DNA of 64,000 nucleotides from Alkalispirochaeta sp. (GTDB lineage Bacteria; Spirochaetota; Spirochaetia; DSM-27196; Alkalispirochaetaceae), in assembly GCA_965601925.1 (NCBI GenBank), contig OZ271854.1:1088001-1152000 (forward strand), written 5' to 3'. A program made the translations under genes and the position numbers. The notes under the pieces are model-generated. The model worked only from the letters and a program-made list of their open reading frames with translations, had not been told where the DNA came from and did not search any database. The first letter of the stretch is position 1; each line of letters opens with the position of its first letter. Of the stretch, positions 6,821-12,649 are shown piece by piece.

Positions 6821-6928
6821 ATGATACGCATTAACAAACGCACATTCGCTACCGCTTCCGGCAGCGACGATTTTTTCGGTCCGTATGACGCAACCAACGT
6901 TCGAGGCGGTCGTCATGTCCGCGTTTAA
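6821..6928 (+). CDS. 35-aa small ORF (MIRINKRTFATASGSDDFFGPYDATNVRGGRHVRV), possibly a gene remnant
   Basis: Purine-rich RBS-like GAGAGGAAG before the ATG; overlaps the redoxin start; below the ORF-track cutoff. Confidence 0.35.
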   Translation: MIRINKRTFATASGSDDFFGPYDATNVRGGRHVRV

Positions 6929-7442
6929 CCGACTAATACCCGGCGCACCCTTCCCCGACATCACGCTTTCCGCAACCGACGGCTCACGGATTGTCCTTGG
7001 GGAGAGAGGGTGGCGCGCGATCTTTGTGATACGCGGCGCCCATTGCGGAATCTGTCGCGCCTATCTCGGCCAGCTTGAAAAGAGACGCTCCGCGTGGGAG
7101 ACGAGGGGCATCGATGTCCTCGTTGCCAGCGCCGACTCGGTGGAGAAGAGCCGCACATTCATAGCCGAGGCGGGGTACCGGGGACGCGCGGCGTGCGACT
7201 TGGACGTGCCCGCCATGCGGGCCCTCGGCCTGTGGATGACCGGGCCGGAGGCGTCGGAGCTCGACTACGTTCATCCCGAGCCCGGCTTTTTTCTGATCGA
7301 TCCCGACGGCAACGTGGCCGCCGCCGAGGCGTCGACCATGCCCTCGGTTCGACCGGACCTCGAGTGGCTCGATAAAAGTCTGACATACGTCGTCGAACAC
7401 GATGTGCGGCCGCCCTACGGCCGCTATGGGGTGGCGGCATGA
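6915..7442 (+). CDS. peroxiredoxin-like redoxin (AhpC/TSA) protein
   Basis: 'PGAPFPDITL', CxxC motif 'RGAHCGIC', 'EPGFFLIDPDG'. Confidence 0.85.
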   Translation: MSAFNRLIPGAPFPDITLSATDGSRIVLGERGWRAIFVIRGAHCGICRAYLGQLEKRRSAWETRGIDVLVASADSVEKSRTFIAEAGYRGRAACDLDVPAMRALGLWMTGPEASELDYVHPEPGFFLIDPDGNVAAAEASTMPSVRPDLEWLDKSLTYVVEHDVRPPYGRYGVAA

Positions 7443-8347
7443 GCGGACCACTGACGCGTAACGGAGAAACGGTCCTGCTCACCGGGGCGACGGGGTACGT
7501 CGGATCGGTTGTCGCCGAGAAATTGTGCAAAGCGGGATATGTGGTGCGAGGCCTCACGCGCTCCGAACGAAAGGCGCCCATCCTCGAGGCGGCGGGAATC
7601 GAGCCGATCGTCGGGGATGTCGGAGATATCGACCTCATGGCCGAGGCGGCAGCGGGCGTAAACGCGATCGTTCACACGGCGGCGCCGAACGCCCCGGTCC
7701 CGGGGGAGAGTATGGCGCAAATAATCGCCGGAGCGGCTCGCGCCGTGGAGCTGGCAGCCGATTTGGCCGCCACGAACAACGCCCGCCTGATCGTCACGAG
7801 CGGGGTCTCGTTATACGGGCCGACCGGGGGCCGCGTCGTAGACGAGACCGCACCGCTACAAACACCGCCGTTCGCCGCCCCCCTTGCCGAGGCGGAGACC
7901 ACATTTGCCGAACGGGGCCGTGCGTATGTCCTCCGGTTAGGCGTCGTGTACGGCCGCGATCAGAGCGCCCCGATGCGCGCGCTCATCGACGGCGTCCGTG
8001 AACGGGGTGCACCCGTCATGATAGACCACGCGAATCGACTTTCGGTTGCGCACGTCGACGATCTCGCGGACCTCTATACCGCTATTCTTGAGGCCGACGC
8101 ACCGCCGACGGTCGTGAACGGCGTCACCGCTATCCTCACGTGGCCCAGGGTGATGGACGCCGTCGCCACGGCGGCGGGTATCTCGGCGGAACCGGAAACC
8201 ATCACGGCGGAGGAAGCGGGAGCGTTGGGCGGTCCGGCGATATACATGGCTATGGATATGGCCGTCTCGGGCGAGCTGGCACGGCGGACCCTTGGATGGC
8301 TACCGAAAGCGCCGGACTTTGAAACCGATCTGACGAGAGGATCGTGA
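7439..8347 (+). CDS. NAD-dependent epimerase/dehydratase family protein
   Basis: 'VLLTGATGYVGS', 'RLGVVYG', 'HVDDLADLY'; ATGA overlap with the redoxin gene. Confidence 0.9.
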   Translation: MSGPLTRNGETVLLTGATGYVGSVVAEKLCKAGYVVRGLTRSERKAPILEAAGIEPIVGDVGDIDLMAEAAAGVNAIVHTAAPNAPVPGESMAQIIAGAARAVELAADLAATNNARLIVTSGVSLYGPTGGRVVDETAPLQTPPFAAPLAEAETTFAERGRAYVLRLGVVYGRDQSAPMRALIDGVRERGAPVMIDHANRLSVAHVDDLADLYTAILEADAPPTVVNGVTAILTWPRVMDAVATAAGISAEPETITAEEAGALGGPAIYMAMDMAVSGELARRTLGWLPKAPDFETDLTRGS

Positions 8348-8459
8348 GGAAGCGTCCGCGGGTACGGAGCGCGACGCGCGGCCCGCTCCGCGGTTCTCAG
8401 CCTTCGCCGACGAGAGCGGATTCACTCCCCGCCTCGCCGGCGCAATGAACTCGCAGTAG

Positions 8460-9374
8460 TTACACGCGACGGTATGAGAGGGCGCGCGCCTTCTCGTACC
8501 CCAATATCTCGTCCCGCTTCAACTCCCCCGGATCGACCGAAGAGCCGAACCGAGCGGCGAGCTTAGCCTGCACCGTATCGCGAAACGCCTCCAAGGTCGG
8601 GCGCGCGCCGGTGAGCTCCTCGACGGAGGTCATCGGTTCGACAACCTTGTCCTTCACCTCCGGTGTCACCCATACCACCTTGAAAAAGTCGTCGGTTTTT
8701 AACGGAGCGAGGAAGACGACGCAGTTCACCACATAGAGATTCTCGATCTCGCTAACGAGAATCGTTGCAAGTTTTCTTCCGCGGGCGCGCACACTACCGC
8801 GATGTTTGTACCACGCCTCTTCGGCGCCCAGCTCGTGGAGCGTTTCGACCAACAGCTCACCGGCGGCGCGGAACGCCCCGTCGCCGGAGCCGAATGTGTG
8901 CTTGTCGACGACGAACTGGACGTTGGCGGTCGCCTCCGGGGTAAGGAAGACGAGCGTACGCTGACCGGTGATGATCACATGTTCCAACGCCGGCGTGTCC
9001 TCCCGGATCTCGTTGATCAGGTTGACGGAGCTCGCCAGGGTCACGATGGCACGGGCACCGGAGTCGTTGAGGATATGGGTGATCTCGCGCCCTTTGTACG
9101 TGGTATTGAAAGGCACCGCCGTACCGCCCAACTTCTGGATGCCGAAGAAGGTGTACACGAACTCCGGGATGTTGGGAAGCATGATCGCGACGCGATCTCC
9201 CGGCTCGATTCCGAGGCCGACGAGACCGTTTGCGACGCGATTGGCATTTTTATCCAACTCCTGATAGGTAATCGTCCGCCCGGCGACGCGCAACGCCTCT
9301 TTTTTCTTGTACGCGGCGGTGACGGTCTCGAGCATTCGGCCGATCGTCATCGGTTCGGTTACGGGGGAACTCAT
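8460..9374 (-). CDS. fusion: acyl-CoA synthetase N-terminal part (aa 1-137) + C-terminal half of an LplA/BPL-like domain (aa 138-304)
   Basis: aa 1-137 are classic AMP-binding N-terminus ('TYQELDKNANRVANGL..GIEPGDRVAIMLPNIPEF...LEHVIITG') with no P-loop. The rest resembles LplA ('LVETLHELG', 'RGRKL', 'KDKVVEPMTSVEELTG', 'GELKRDE'). Confidence 0.75.
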   Translation of the reverse strand: MSSPVTEPMTIGRMLETVTAAYKKKEALRVAGRTITYQELDKNANRVANGLVGLGIEPGDRVAIMLPNIPEFVYTFFGIQKLGGTAVPFNTTYKGREITHILNDSGARAIVTLASSVNLINEIREDTPALEHVIITGQRTLVFLTPEATANVQFVVDKHTFGSGDGAFRAAGELLVETLHELGAEEAWYKHRGSVRARGRKLATILVSEIENLYVVNCVVFLAPLKTDDFFKVVWVTPEVKDKVVEPMTSVEELTGARPTLEAFRDTVQAKLAARFGSSVDPGELKRDEILGYEKARALSYRRV

Positions 9375-10918
9375 GATGCATCTCCTTGGGCGTCGGCTAC
9401 ATCGGATGAACGCTCGATCAGCCGGTCGTCGGTCGCCTCTCCGGTGAGCTCGCGGCGTAGGATTTTGCCGGTCGCGCTCTTTGGAAGGCTTTCGACGAAC
9501 TCGACGAGCTTGGGAACCTTGTACGCCGCCAGGTTGGCGTGACAGTACTCGGTGATGGCGCTCGTCTCGATAGTCTCTCCCGGTTTCAATACGACGAACG
9601 CTTTCACCGCCTCGCGGTCGCGCTTGTCCGTCACCGCGACGATCGCCGCCTCTTCCACCGCGGGATGGGTCATGATCGTCTCCTCCACCTCCCGCGGGGA
9701 GATGTTAAACCCGCCGCGAATGATGAGATCCTTCTTGCGATCGGTAATGAAGTAGTACCCGTCAGTGTCCCGATAGCCGAGATCGCCGGTGTGAAACCAC
9801 CCCTCCACGATCGCCTCCCCGGTCGCCTCCTCGTTTTTCCAGTAGCCCGGCGTAACGACTGCGGCGCTGATGACGATCTCGCCGACCTCGCCGTCGCCGA
9901 GGATGGTGCCGTCGTCGTCCATGATCGCCATCTCGACCGGTCCCGCGGGCGGCCCGATCGATCCCTCCTTGTACGCATCGCCGCTCGGATTGAGGCTGAC
10001 CGCGGAGGTCGTTTCAGTGAGGCCGTACCCCTCGTTAATGCGCGTCTGAAAGAGCTCCTCGAACTCGCGGATCGTCGTGACCGGAAGCGGCGCACCGCCG
10101 GAGACGCACGTATGGAGCGAGGTGGGGATCGATGTGTTTCGCACGCGCGCAAACTGCAACAGGTGCTGGTACATCGTAGGAATCGCGATGAGAATCGTGG
10201 CGTGATTCTCGCTGATCGCATCCAGAAGATTGCGTGGGGAGTAGTGCGAAACGAGGATCATCGTCGACGCATTGAAGAGTCCCGCAACCAACCCGTTGGA
10301 TAGTCCGTAGACGTGAAAGAGCGGCAGCACGAGCACGACACGATCGTCTTTGGTCATCTCGAATATCGTCGGGACGACCTCGGCGCACTGCGAATGGAAG
10401 TTGCGGTGAGTGAGCATCACGCCTTTCGGCTTGCCGGTCGTACCGGAGGTGTACAGCAACACGGCGGGCTGTTCGAGATCGACCTCCCTCGCCTTGAAGC
10501 GGTCGGAGGAGCGGACCATGAGCTCCGCCAAGTTGATCGTATCGACCGGCGCGGCGCCCGATCGGCCGCTTCGCGCCTGCTTCGCGACCGTGATACCTTC
10601 TTGCTGTGCGGCCTCTTGGTCTATGCGAAGGTCGGCGCCGGCTACCATACCCTTGCCGGTGACGCCCTGAACGACGACCGTGTCGGGCAACCGTTCATTC
10701 GACAACATATATTTACCGGCGATTCGCCCCTCCGCGAGGCCGGTTGCGTACGCGACGATATCCGCCGCGTCACCGTCGGGATTGTAGAGAAGTCGCCACC
10801 CCGGATGCGTTGCGTCGGATTCGGTCGAACCGTCGCCCTGTAGACTCTGCGTGTCTCGTCCCTCGGGACGCTCCGACGGGGCCGGTCGACCCTTTTTCCG
10901 TCTTCCGAATAGTGCCAT
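9371..10918 (-). CDS. fusion: N-terminal half of an LplA/BPL-like domain + catalytic C-terminal part of a long-chain acyl-CoA synthetase
   Basis: Intact ANL motifs 'YTSGTTGKPKG', 'EGYGLTE', 'WFHTGDLG', 'RKKDLIIRGG', 'LPKSATGKILR'. The usual ~135-aa ACS N-terminus is replaced by 'WRLLY...PDTVVV...IDQEAAQQEGITVAKQARSG', which resembles the LplA N-terminus. Confidence 0.8.
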   Translation of the reverse strand: MALFGRRKKGRPAPSERPEGRDTQSLQGDGSTESDATHPGWRLLYNPDGDAADIVAYATGLAEGRIAGKYMLSNERLPDTVVVQGVTGKGMVAGADLRIDQEAAQQEGITVAKQARSGRSGAAPVDTINLAELMVRSSDRFKAREVDLEQPAVLLYTSGTTGKPKGVMLTHRNFHSQCAEVVPTIFEMTKDDRVVLVLPLFHVYGLSNGLVAGLFNASTMILVSHYSPRNLLDAISENHATILIAIPTMYQHLLQFARVRNTSIPTSLHTCVSGGAPLPVTTIREFEELFQTRINEGYGLTETTSAVSLNPSGDAYKEGSIGPPAGPVEMAIMDDDGTILGDGEVGEIVISAAVVTPGYWKNEEATGEAIVEGWFHTGDLGYRDTDGYYFITDRKKDLIIRGGFNISPREVEETIMTHPAVEEAAIVAVTDKRDREAVKAFVVLKPGETIETSAITEYCHANLAAYKVPKLVEFVESLPKSATGKILRRELTGEATDDRLIERSSDVADAQGDAS

Positions 10919-10924
10919 CTTCAA

Positions 10925-10953
10925 AAATTATGCGATGAATAGGCGTAGGTCAA
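10925..10953 (-). promoter_or_regulatory. sigma70-like promoter TTGACC-N17-TAATTT for the split ACS/LplA pair
   Basis: -35 at 10953-10948, -10 at 10930-10925; ATG (10918) is the 7th base after the -10; no SD. Confidence 0.55.
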
Positions 10954-11297
10954 TAAAAAAACGGTCGCCGACCGAGTTAAAATTATAAAAGGGGTCGTTT
11001 TGTGCCCGCGGTCACCTCGATGCCGCGTTCCACCGGCGCGTCCGAAAAGTCCACCCCGAAAGTTGGAGCACGAGACGGACGCCCGGCCGGCCGCCGCCGA
11101 CTTCGCCGACGGAGCAAGGTCGCCGTCGAAGCGATTGAAAAAAGAAGGCTCGACGTGGCGCTGTCTGTACGGGATCCTCCCGGGTATGATTCGGTCATAA
11201 CGTGACGGAGGTGTGATATGCAACGAGTACTCGGCTCATCGAATATCAAAGTGAGCGCCATCGGCATGGGTGAAGTGATCTGCGTCGAGAGGGAGCC

Positions 11298-11990
11298 GTG
11301 ATGAAGGAGAAACCGGTTATCACCGCCGGGGAGGCGGTGGGCCACATACGGAACGGCGATACGATCATGGTGGGAGGCTTCATGGGAGTCGGCTCGCCTC
11401 CGGGACTTCTACGCTCTCTCAGGGAGTCGGGACGACGGGATTTAGTTCTCGTCTGTAGTGACAATGGTCTGTACCTAGGAGACGAGGACGAGGCGACCGG
11501 CGTCGCGTTGAACGTGCGGGCGCGTCAGTTTCGCCGCATCGTCTCCAGTCACATCGGCCTCAACAAGGAGACGCAGCGACAGATGATAACGGGCGAGACC
11601 GAGGTCGAGCTCGTTCCTCAAGGAACGTTGGCGGAACGCATACGAGCCGCCGGTGCCGGTCTCGGCGGTATCCTCACCCCCACCGGTATCGGGACTGAGG
11701 TTGCCGACGGCAAGGACGTGCTTCGGGTCGCCGGCCGCGACTACCTCTTGGAGCTCCCGATCCACGCCGACGTGACCCTTATCCGAGCGGCCAAGGCCGA
11801 CAGAGGAGGAAACCTCACCTACGCCGCCTCGGCCCGGAACTTCTGCCCCTTGATGGCTACGGCGGGTCGTACCGTCTTGGTGGAGGCGGACGAGATTGTA
11901 GAGGTCGGAGCGCTCGACCCGGAGGAGATCGTTACCCCCGGGATCTTCGTAGACTATCTGATTCAACGCGATGCGGGAAATGCGGTATGA
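11298..11990 (+). CDS. atoD: 3-oxoacid (acetoacetate) CoA-transferase subunit A
   Basis: 'GDTIMVGGFMGVGSP', 'PQGTLAERIRAAGAGLGG', 'NF.PLMATA', 'TPGIFVD'. Confidence 0.88.
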   Translation: MMKEKPVITAGEAVGHIRNGDTIMVGGFMGVGSPPGLLRSLRESGRRDLVLVCSDNGLYLGDEDEATGVALNVRARQFRRIVSSHIGLNKETQRQMITGETEVELVPQGTLAERIRAAGAGLGGILTPTGIGTEVADGKDVLRVAGRDYLLELPIHADVTLIRAAKADRGGNLTYAASARNFCPLMATAGRTVLVEADEIVEVGALDPEEIVTPGIFVDYLIQRDAGNAV

Positions 11991-12649
11991 CATACACTCC
12001 GGACAAGACGAAAATCGCTCGACGGATCGCCGGTATGTTTTGTGACGGTGATGTAGTGAACCTGGGGATCGGGTTACCCACATTGGTGGGCAACTACATT
12101 CCCGATGACGTGGAGATTCTCCTCCAGTCTGAAAACGGCTTCCTCGGTTTGGGGCCGCAACCGCCCGCGGGGGAGGAGAACCCCGACCTCATAAATGCCG
12201 GGGCCGTCCCGGTGACCATTCTTCCGGGCGGGTGCTTCTTTGATTCCGCAGTCTCGTTCGGTATCATCCGCGGCGGCCATATCGACTATACGGTCCTCGG
12301 TGTTTTGGAGGTCGACCAGGAGGGCAACATCGCGAACTACAAAGTACCCGGCACAATGGTGCCCGGTATGGGGGGAGCCATGGATCTATTGACCGGTGCG
12401 CGGACGGTGATTGCCGCAACGGTTCATTTGGATAAGTCGGGTAACTCCAAGATGGTTACGCGGTGCTCTTTGCCCCTCACCGCCGCCGGAGAGGTGAATT
12501 ACGTGGTTACCGATGTCGGGCTGTTTGAGGTGGGAGAACGTCACTTCATCCTCAAGGAGTATTTTGCCCCGGCGACTCCGGAATGGATTGCGGAGGTGAC
12601 GCACGCCTCGGTTGCCGTCGCCGCCGATTGCCGGGAGTACCGATTCTGA
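11987..12649 (+). CDS. atoA: 3-oxoacid (acetoacetate) CoA-transferase subunit B
   Basis: 'VNLGIGLPT', catalytic 'QSENG', 'GMGGAMDL'; ATGA overlap with subunit A. Confidence 0.88.
   Translation: MTYTPDKTKIARRIAGMFCDGDVVNLGIGLPTLVGNYIPDDVEILLQSENGFLGLGPQPPAGEENPDLINAGAVPVTILPGGCFFDSAVSFGIIRGGHIDYTVLGVLEVDQEGNIANYKVPGTMVPGMGGAMDLLTGARTVIAATVHLDKSGNSKMVTRCSLPLTAAGEVNYVVTDVGLFEVGERHFILKEYFAPATPEWIAEVTHASVAVAADCREYRF

Follow-up and report, generated by a model that had tools for sequence, protein, structure and literature searches.

Introduction

The adenylation domains of nonribosomal peptide synthetases (NRPSs) have interruption sites between motifs a2 and a3, a6 and a7, and a8 and a9, the first of which is documented as permissive; in the available part of the source, the interrupted domains form a single chain within an NRPS module and carry a contiguous inserted methyltransferase (PMC8341866). 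LplA-family enzymes exist in bipartite (LplA/LplB) and circularly permuted (Lpl(BA)) forms, which are cut between the catalytic and the accessory domains according to the available sections of a survey (PMC10332631). Here, we describe a pair of overlapping genes in a 64,000-nucleotide stretch of the Alkalispirochaeta sp. genome (contig OZ271854.1, positions 1,088,001 to 1,152,000, referred to below as the window), in which the parts of two such enzyme folds are joined crosswise. Gene 1 encodes L1-A2 and gene 2 encodes A1-L2, where A1 and A2 are the pieces of an AMP-forming acyl-CoA synthetase (ACS), and L1 and L2 are the pieces of a domain of predicted LplA/biotin protein ligase (BPL) fold, hereafter the L domain.

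As in the interrupted NRPS domains, an ANL fold is broken here between a2 and a3 by a foreign fold (PMC8341866, available text). Unlike them, the pair has a stand-alone ACS as host, an LplA/BPL-fold guest, crossed connectivity and two polypeptides, and no NRPS domain was found in the pair or its neighbours; the words 'lipoate' and 'ligase' do not occur in the available text of that source. With LplA/LplB and Lpl(BA) the pair shares LplA-family parts that are spread over two genes or reordered, but it differs in that the catalytic domain itself is cut, at the RRxxGGG loop, no accessory domain is present and each half continues into a piece of the ACS; the available part of the survey contains neither 'acyl-CoA' nor 'AMP-binding' nor 'Spirochaet' (PMC10332631). 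The best sequence family for both ACS pieces is that of the medium/long-chain fatty-acid--CoA ligases (PRK06187, FACL13-like), which, unlike the enzyme of the pair, are not split and lack the extra domain. The genomic setting recalls the acs-actP operons: in E. coli, the gene of an AMP-forming synthetase is paired with that of a carboxylate permease of the sodium:solute symporter (SSF) family, and the present pair likewise joins an SSF symporter gene to an ANL synthetase gene. Unlike in acs-actP, the symporter is not ActP, its gene comes first and the synthetase has two chains. A literature search found no description of a crossed ACS/lipoate-ligase pair, in line with an initial annotation of the window, made from the sequence alone, which knew of no system with this architecture. 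Among interrupted or split ANL enzymes, the pair is a variant that is conserved and undescribed, and its crossed two-chain topology is unusual.

Results

Division of the acyl-CoA synthetase between two overlapping genes

The two coupled open reading frames (ORFs) with an ATGA overlap at 9371-9374, noted at the outset, are confirmed by the ORF list and by direct reading of the sequence (Table 1). Together with the GGAG that precedes it, the overlap is the usual picture of translational coupling between gene 1 and gene 2. An in-frame TTG at 10924 offers an alternative start for gene 1 (ORF 9371..10924, 517 residues); the protein database form, P0121, has 515 residues. The leader of gene 1 is not conserved, since the distance from the start to the WRL motif varies from 2 to 26 residues among the other loci.

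Pfam analysis matched gene 1 residues 124-362 to PF00501 positions 151-384 (E 2.9e-62) and residues 412-487 to the whole of PF13193, and gene 2 residues 17-135 to PF00501 positions 3-124 (E 3.2e-33), so that the complete PF00501 + PF13193 set is reached only by both chains jointly. The best NCBIfam model is the same for both genes (PRK06187, long-chain-fatty-acid--CoA ligase), and here too the ranges are complementary, with positions 128-523 in gene 1 (392.9 bits) and 6-142 in gene 2 (104 bits); neither reaches the family cut-off of 476 alone. No single polypeptide carries the whole ACS N-terminal domain, which is spread over two ORFs with a stop/start overlap. The break falls between PF00501 positions 124 and 151, after an a2-like QKLGGTAVPFN and before the a3 P-loop YTSGTTGKPKG. 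The gene 1 translation reads YTSGTTGKPKG, GYGLTE, TGD, DRKKDLIIRGG and PKSATGK, and contains all ANL core motifs from a3 to a10, including a5, a7, the a8 hinge and the a10 lysine; motifs a2, a3, a5, a7, a8 and a10 were assigned by the ANL consensus. In the AlphaFold2 model of gene 2 (79-sequence alignment, mean predicted local distance difference test (pLDDT) 83.2, compared with 48,161 PDB representatives), residues 6-138 match ACS N-terminal subdomains, with 8ivi_B at Z 15.2 (root-mean-square deviation (rmsd) 2.3, 135 aligned) and FACL13 5zrn_A at Z 15.0 and 34% identity. Because the Pfam and NCBIfam coordinates of the two genes are complementary, the two chains jointly make up a single whole synthetase, with the cut falling between the a2-like and a3 motifs. 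This is the division first proposed, with the ACS N-terminus in gene 2, ending in LEHVIITG, and the remainder in gene 1.

Two halves of an LplA/BPL-fold domain

The remaining segments point to a second fold that is cut in the same manner. Gene 2 residues 150-272 match PF21948 (LplA-B_cat) positions 75-199 of 200 with E 3.2e-6 and 27.7 bits, against a cut-off of 27; gene 1 residues 1-123, which contain L1, gave no Pfam match. An exhaustive HMMER search with L2 (gene 2 residues 138-304) against 1.84 billion cluster representatives at E <= 0.001 returned 29 matches, namely A1-L2 proteins of about 300 residues, fragments, the repetitive 1364-residue protein P0176, which matched over 38 residues only, and seven intact proteins of 365-391 residues. 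These seven are 30-34% identical to L2 and have a full-length PF21948, followed in three of them by a weak match to Lip_prot_lig_C. Four of the seven clusters bear source names, all of them archaeal 'lipoate--protein ligase family protein' (Freyarchaeota/Jordarchaeia, Sulfolobus, Bathyarchaeota and Jordarchaeum/Lokiarchaeia), and three are nameless; this archaeal kinship hints at a possible inter-domain origin of the L part. The intact relatives P0168, P0171, P0175 and P0178-P0181 share the WRL, AWYKH and PEK...TSVE motifs with the bacterial L domain.

P0168, an intact archaeal LplA-like protein of 365 residues, matches solved lipoate-protein ligases by sequence (e.g. 6jom, E 1.8e-13). A profile of 32 gene 1 homologues cut at the junction aligned with P0168 residues 1-75 (hhalign probability 97.1%, E 5e-11), and a profile of 120 gene 2 homologues aligned with residues 82-244 (99.9%, E 5.4e-36). 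Only six residues of P0168 remain unmatched between the two, 'PIGGGV' (76-81), the glycine part of the RRxxGGG loop. Gene 2 model residues 139-281 match BPL structures 1wnl_A (Z 14.1, rmsd 2.0, 116 aligned) and 2eay_A (Z 13.3, rmsd 2.7, 122 aligned) and LipB 2qht_A (Z 13.0, rmsd 2.3, 125 aligned), and on this model L2 is predicted to have the BPL/LipB fold; L1 is assigned to the LplA/BPL fold through its profile alignment to the intact relatives alone. An LplA-like N-half in gene 1 and C-half in gene 2, with complementary breakpoints at the RRxSGGG-type loop, had been read from the window sequence, and the absence of any LplA-fold match for the non-ACS segments had been named as what would refute this; both segments were matched. 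At two metagenome loci of the intact archaeal relative, from one lineage, no ACS was found nearby, and the neighbours, which offer no lead on function, are a glucose-dehydrogenase-like gene, methyltransferases, TspO and an AsnC-type regulator.

Motifs kept and lost in the L domain

EGRxAGKYxLS and RxGR are invariant in L1 in 9/9 sequences. L1 ends in A-x-x-R-x-G-R-x-(G/A/S), from which the chain runs on into the ACS; RxGR thus stands in the place of the RRxxGGG of LplA ligases, and the glycine run of P0168 (76-81) has no counterpart. The GxxQ(D/N) motif is lost as well. L2 keeps YxHxGxxRxxGxK and K201; of 79 aligned homologues, 76 have K at this position and three have R. The residue lines up with the lysine of G-x-K-(I/V)-(S/T)-G in the intact relatives and, via them, in solved LplA chains. 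In a cluster typified by a candidate division TA06 protein, the lysine is shifted by one position (GKR, not GRK). The PExK...EPxTS stretch is common to L2 and the intact ligase-like relatives; E239, E246 and P247 are invariant (79/79), K241 is kept in 75/79, T249 in 70/79 and S250 in 78/79. Both the degeneracy of the LplA motifs and the retention of the family lysine had been noticed in the initial annotation.

LipB/LipM octanoyltransferases use a catalytic cysteine that forms an acyl-thioester; across 9 sequences, no invariant cysteine was found in L1 or L2. L2 ends at the equivalent of P0168 residue 244 of 365, the remainder of P0168 being Lip_prot_lig_C-like, and gene 2 has no accessory C-terminal domain after L2, nor does the L domain have an LplB partner. 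Such an accessory domain is needed for the making of lipoyl-AMP by lipoate ligases, as stated in the available part of PMC7253636. The same genome contains two canonical LplA-B_cat genes with a full-length domain (215 and 144 bits) and a BPL-type gene (Table 1), so that the interlaced L domain is an extra copy and not the cell's sole ligase of that fold. With RRxxGGG, GxxQ(D/N) and the accessory domain lost, no invariant cysteine and canonical genes present, the L domain would not be a member of the lipoate ligases, judging by its sequence.

Table 1. Positions of the gene pair, its segments and related genes. Plain coordinates refer to the window; G000:C1 is the single contig of the window genome.
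Feature	Position	Strand	Details
Gene 1 (L1-A2)	9371..10918	-	515 aa from ATG 10918; ORF list; PF00501 151-384 + PF13193
Gene 2 (A1-L2)	8460..9374	-	304 aa; ORF list; PF00501 3-124 + PF21948 75-199
Coupling signal	9371..9385	-	GGAG 9382-9385 and ATGA stop/start overlap 9371-9374; sequence read directly
Basic N-terminal leader of gene 1 (MALFGRRKKG...)	10805..10918	-	Length varies among homologues
L1	10556..10804	-	N-terminal third of predicted LplA/BPL-fold domain; ends in conserved RxGR
A2	9839..10555	-	Part of ACS N-terminal domain that starts shortly ahead of motif a3 (P-loop YTSGTTGKPKG) and runs to domain end
ACS C-terminal domain (AMP-binding_C)	9464..9691	-	PKSATGK lysine motif; PF13193 positions 1-76, E 2.6e-19
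A1	8964..9374	-	ACS N-terminus, gene 2 aa 1-137; motifs a1 + a2; ends LEHVIITG
L2	8463..8963	-	C-terminal two thirds of predicted LplA/BPL-fold domain, gene 2 aa 138-304
K201 codon	8772..8774	-	Gene 2; counterpart of LplA/LipB/BPL family lysine
CoA-transferase subunits A + B	11298..12649	+	Divergent from window pair; PF01144, E 4e-58 and 9.3e-35
Canonical LplA-B_cat gene	G000:C1:1577871-1578446	-
Canonical LplA-B_cat gene	G000:C1:448985-449569	+
BPL-type gene	G000:C1 1989207-1989467		Same genome

Conservation of the crossed arrangement

The window genome, a single contig of 5.05 Mb, contains a second pair with the same junctions on the forward strand (G000:C1, about 2339172-2342072; L006:4172-7072), whose L1 and L2 are 52% and 55% identical to those of the window pair. 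In this second pair, the two genes are 6 bases apart, without overlap, and lie directly behind an SSF symporter gene (L006:2922-4571). The search of other genomes for adjacent pairs with the same junctions, proposed with the initial annotation, found the L1-A2-A1-L2 order on one strand in 14 other loci. Five short loci cut before L1 (L008, L009, L010, L013 and L014) read A2-A1-L2, and one further contig begins inside A1. With the four segments, their order and their junctions all repeated at 14 other loci, chance is far from sufficient to account for the arrangement. Scanning the genome_contigs set with gene 2 gave four true loci and two unrelated ACS matches, with 21% identity, in Luminiphilus.

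Of 31 related genomes, 27 have L2 (13/14 genera). In a phylum-wide sample of 401 genomes, L2 turned up in 12 (9/153 genera), with its occurrences concentrated in the order to which the window belongs and in one further family (8/17). Among the matches listed (at least 120), all gene 2 homologues have 288-321 residues and cover 95-100% of gene 2, and the named ones come from Alkalispirochaeta, Spirochaeta and other Spirochaetota. A search with L1 gave 32 proteins, all of L1-A2 type and 468-515 residues long, save one of 337 residues with only PF00501 recorded. The ESM Atlas has two clusters with the domain make-up of the pair, one of 108 members, most commonly Spirochaetota, and one of 53 members, most commonly Thermodesulfobacteriota; one such cluster includes the candidate division TA06 protein. 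One genome (G080) was considered as a case of L2 without ACS parts and rejected, as the readable part of its gene still ends in ...LEHVILTGERT, with the stretch upstream masked. At that locus (L030:8358-9104, G080:C1), N bases lie inside the A1-L2 gene and upstream of it, and gene 1 is unreadable.

Compared with eight other pairs, the window pair shows identities of 53-63% in L1, 47-57% in L2, 59-69% in A1 and 49-63% in A2. These comparable values indicate that the L halves are constrained like the enzyme parts. No fused form of the pair was found among the 29 matches of the exhaustive L2 search, nor among proteins of 533-2000 residues with L2 (weak evidence by the search's own note), nor up to 905 residues with L1. 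Contigs from three of four sequencing runs (X1-X3) of one sample, possibly the assembly's own source, bridge both junctions without differences, which is consistent with the assembly and not independent of it. The two outcomes named in advance as refuting, a misassembly at the junctions and a unique, decaying pair, are contradicted by the paralogue, the 14 other loci, the bridging contigs, the spread among relatives and the L halves being as conserved as the ACS parts. Taken together, sequence conservation points to a pair that is real, old and under selection.

Predicted assembly of the two chains

We modeled the complex of the gene 1 and gene 2 products using ESMFold2 without alignments and with three controls. 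The pair scored 0.92 and the best control 0.00; the 0.92 mark was attained by 51 of 78 solved complexes and by 2 of 108 mismatched pairs. The runs agreed in at least 48% of contacts, with a partner pLDDT of at least 76. The confident interface joins chain 1 residues 123-238 (and 360-361) to chain 2 residues 3-137, which are the two ACS pieces. The halves of a split gene resemble many solved ACS structures, and the pass may come from this likeness; the model supports that the ACS pieces fit, and fitting is not binding. From the complementary homology of L1 and L2 and their strict co-occurrence, we infer that the L domain may re-form in trans.

Genomic context

A co-directional SSF symporter gene (PF00474) lies directly upstream of the pair in 8/8 other loci by Pfam and in 5/5 further loci by tblastn. 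Counted over the pair loci, it is present in 13 of 14, the window copy being the sole exception, and in most loci it is separated from the pair by a few bases or overlaps it. The window genome has one such symporter only, beside the second pair; the window copy is a second, symporter-less copy beside CoA-transferase genes, which were not found beside the five closer orthologous pairs checked. Neighbours other than the symporter are not conserved among loci. In NCBIfam comparisons, the symporters scored 116-129 bits with PanF (cut-off 328) and 103-125 bits with PutP (cut-off 515.5), and one of four tested scored 44.5 bits with ActP (cut-off 750). PanF, PutP and MctP, relatives of these symporters, all carry carboxylates.

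Discussion

Proposed function

We consider it likely that gene 1 and gene 2 encode an obligate two-chain carboxylate-CoA ligase that acts downstream of uptake by an importer and has the L domain for an accessory module. In this proposal, an AMP-forming ACS of the ANL superfamily would be cut in the a2-a3 loop and an LplA/BPL-fold domain at the RRxxGGG loop, and the four ends would be joined crosswise, L1 to A2 in chain one and A1 to L2 in chain two; the cross-joined anatomy itself (L1-A2 and A1-L2) is observed. Neither fold would be complete in either chain, so that both would have to form by association, aided by translational coupling. Because an SSF symporter gene normally comes immediately before the pair, its job is most likely the conversion of an imported carboxylate to the CoA thioester; that the carboxylate is of short or medium chain is a guess. 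The L domain would hold both chains locked to each other, and its conserved lysine pocket probably retains the binding of a ligand or a partner.

Several observations weigh against this proposal or against parts of it. The contact between L1 and L2 is absent from the confident contacts of the complex model, and L1 is not confidently placed on L2; of the obligate heterodimer put forward in the initial annotation, the association of the ACS halves agrees with the model, and the pairing of L1 with L2 is inferred from homology and co-occurrence. The fold assignment of L is indirect: its link to solved LplA structures runs via archaeal intermediates and a borderline Pfam score (27.7 bits against 27, with the gene 2 product of the paralogue at 22 bits, under the cut-off). 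When nine-sequence profiles were compared with PDB sequences, L2 gave no match at E <= 1 and L1 gave chance matches only (RNA polymerase omega, E 0.66; thioredoxin, E 1.1), and L1 modeled alone from a nine-sequence alignment had a mean pLDDT of 46.4, unusable for structure search. As for import, the window pair has no symporter of its own, and the symporters of the other loci, although nearest to the PanF, PutP and MctP models, fall far under every cut-off. Finally, a pure clamp would not need K201 or the PExK...EPxTS residues, and their retention, with motifs shared with ligase-like relatives, argues that L may be more than structural.

Alternative explanations

In an unlikely alternative, L is catalytic: the acyl-adenylate of the ACS would be passed across the shared junction, and L would act as a 'half ligase' that has no adenylation domain of its own and moves the acyl group onto a lysine of a protein or onto some other amine. 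The RRxxGGG loop lines the ligand pocket of LplA-type enzymes, and it is exactly at this loop that the ACS joins L. The family lysine, kept in 76/79 homologues, the conserved YxHxGxxRxxGxK and PExK...EPxTS motifs, and L halves as conserved as the ACS parts would all suit a working enzyme, and although the C-terminal domain needed for adenylation is gone, LplA-type catalytic domains can transfer from preformed lipoyl-AMP (PMC7253636). The symporter could also be read in this light, as SMVT, a mammalian SSF member, carries lipoate and biotin. However, ANL enzymes normally hold the adenylate buried, neither RRxxGGG nor GxxQ(D/N) is retained, the TA06-type cluster has its lysine one position away, canonical LplA-type genes are already present in the genome, and no acceptor-protein gene is conserved beside the pair, the symporter gene alone being so. 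For mammals, a route with two enzymes was once put forward, in which an ANL-type lipoate-activating enzyme works with LIPT1, and the present one would be its physically coupled counterpart. In the available part of one source, LIPT1 is termed a 'half ligase' and its ligase role is called physiologically misleading (PMC7253636). In its fuller form, this explanation would make the pair an ANL-powered protein or amine acyl ligase, fed by the symporter with a carboxylate cofactor or a fatty acid, in which the ACS part would adenylate this substrate and L would take over the adenylate at the four-way junction and transfer the acyl group to a lysine; we think this improbable. If true, it would be a new way to build a ligase from two unrelated adenylate-handling folds, existing only as a heterodimer.

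That the genes encode two independent proteins with atrophied partial domains, which do not assemble or of which only one is functional, appears very unlikely. Partial AMP-binding domains can work, as with a phenylacetate-CoA ligase without 67 N-terminal residues, described in the available part of PMC4432964; against this, the roughly 150 PF00501 positions absent from gene 1 are exactly those supplied by gene 2, the genes are always adjacent, tightly spaced and in the same order, and the complex model separates the pair from its best control (0.92 versus 0.00), with the caveat of likeness given above. An artefact or recent accident, be it an error of assembly or a new rearrangement by which an ACS gene and an lplA-like gene were destroyed, has nothing positive in its favour beyond the read-level data coming from one sample, perhaps the assembly's source, and is already refuted by the same junctions in a 55%-identical paralogue and in 14 loci from independent assemblies, by two open frames with conserved motifs, and by the X1-X3 contigs.

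Origin and significance

On the preferred explanation, an obligate two-chain ligase, the pair would be an example from nature in which two folds without relation to each other are cut at loops and cross-joined over two polypeptides, the protein image of a reciprocal gene crossover. With both folds cut at loops and their ends exchanged, four chain ends must meet at one point. Selection would have kept the design within Spirochaetota, in one order or more, as well as in other phyla. It could have arisen by a single inversion between two oppositely oriented genes, or by two tandem synthetase genes whose stop/start junction was inserted into a ligase gene, and either event could make both chimeras at once; no evolutionary intermediate of the crossed pair was found. 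The pair bears on the rise of new multi-domain enzymes, on the loops of the ANL and LplA folds that tolerate interruption and on natural fragment complementation, and an active L domain would represent an undescribed link between acyl-CoA synthetases and protein acylation. Pipeline annotation names both genes 'AMP-binding protein' or 'long-chain acyl-CoA synthetase', which masks the crossed design.

Upstream region and neighbouring genes

An Rfam scan of 8200-11400 gave no match at E <= 1, and a promoter scan found no sigma-70-like site under the rules of the scan. Right ahead of the gene 1 ATG, the sequence reads TTGACC...CATAAT with a 15-base spacer, which would yield a nearly leaderless mRNA. 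A terminator-like hairpin, made of CGGTCGGCGACCG with a run of T after it (window 10962-10974, reverse strand), lies some 40 bases upstream of where gene 1 starts, within the 373-base divergent intergenic region common to gene 1 and the CoA-transferase genes. On the other side of the pair, a gene of the NAD-dependent epimerase/dehydratase family (window 7439-8347, forward strand) converges on gene 2; it had no tblastn match at five closer orthologous loci. The start of this gene overlaps the end of the preceding 185-residue ORF (6885-7442, forward strand) by 4 bases.

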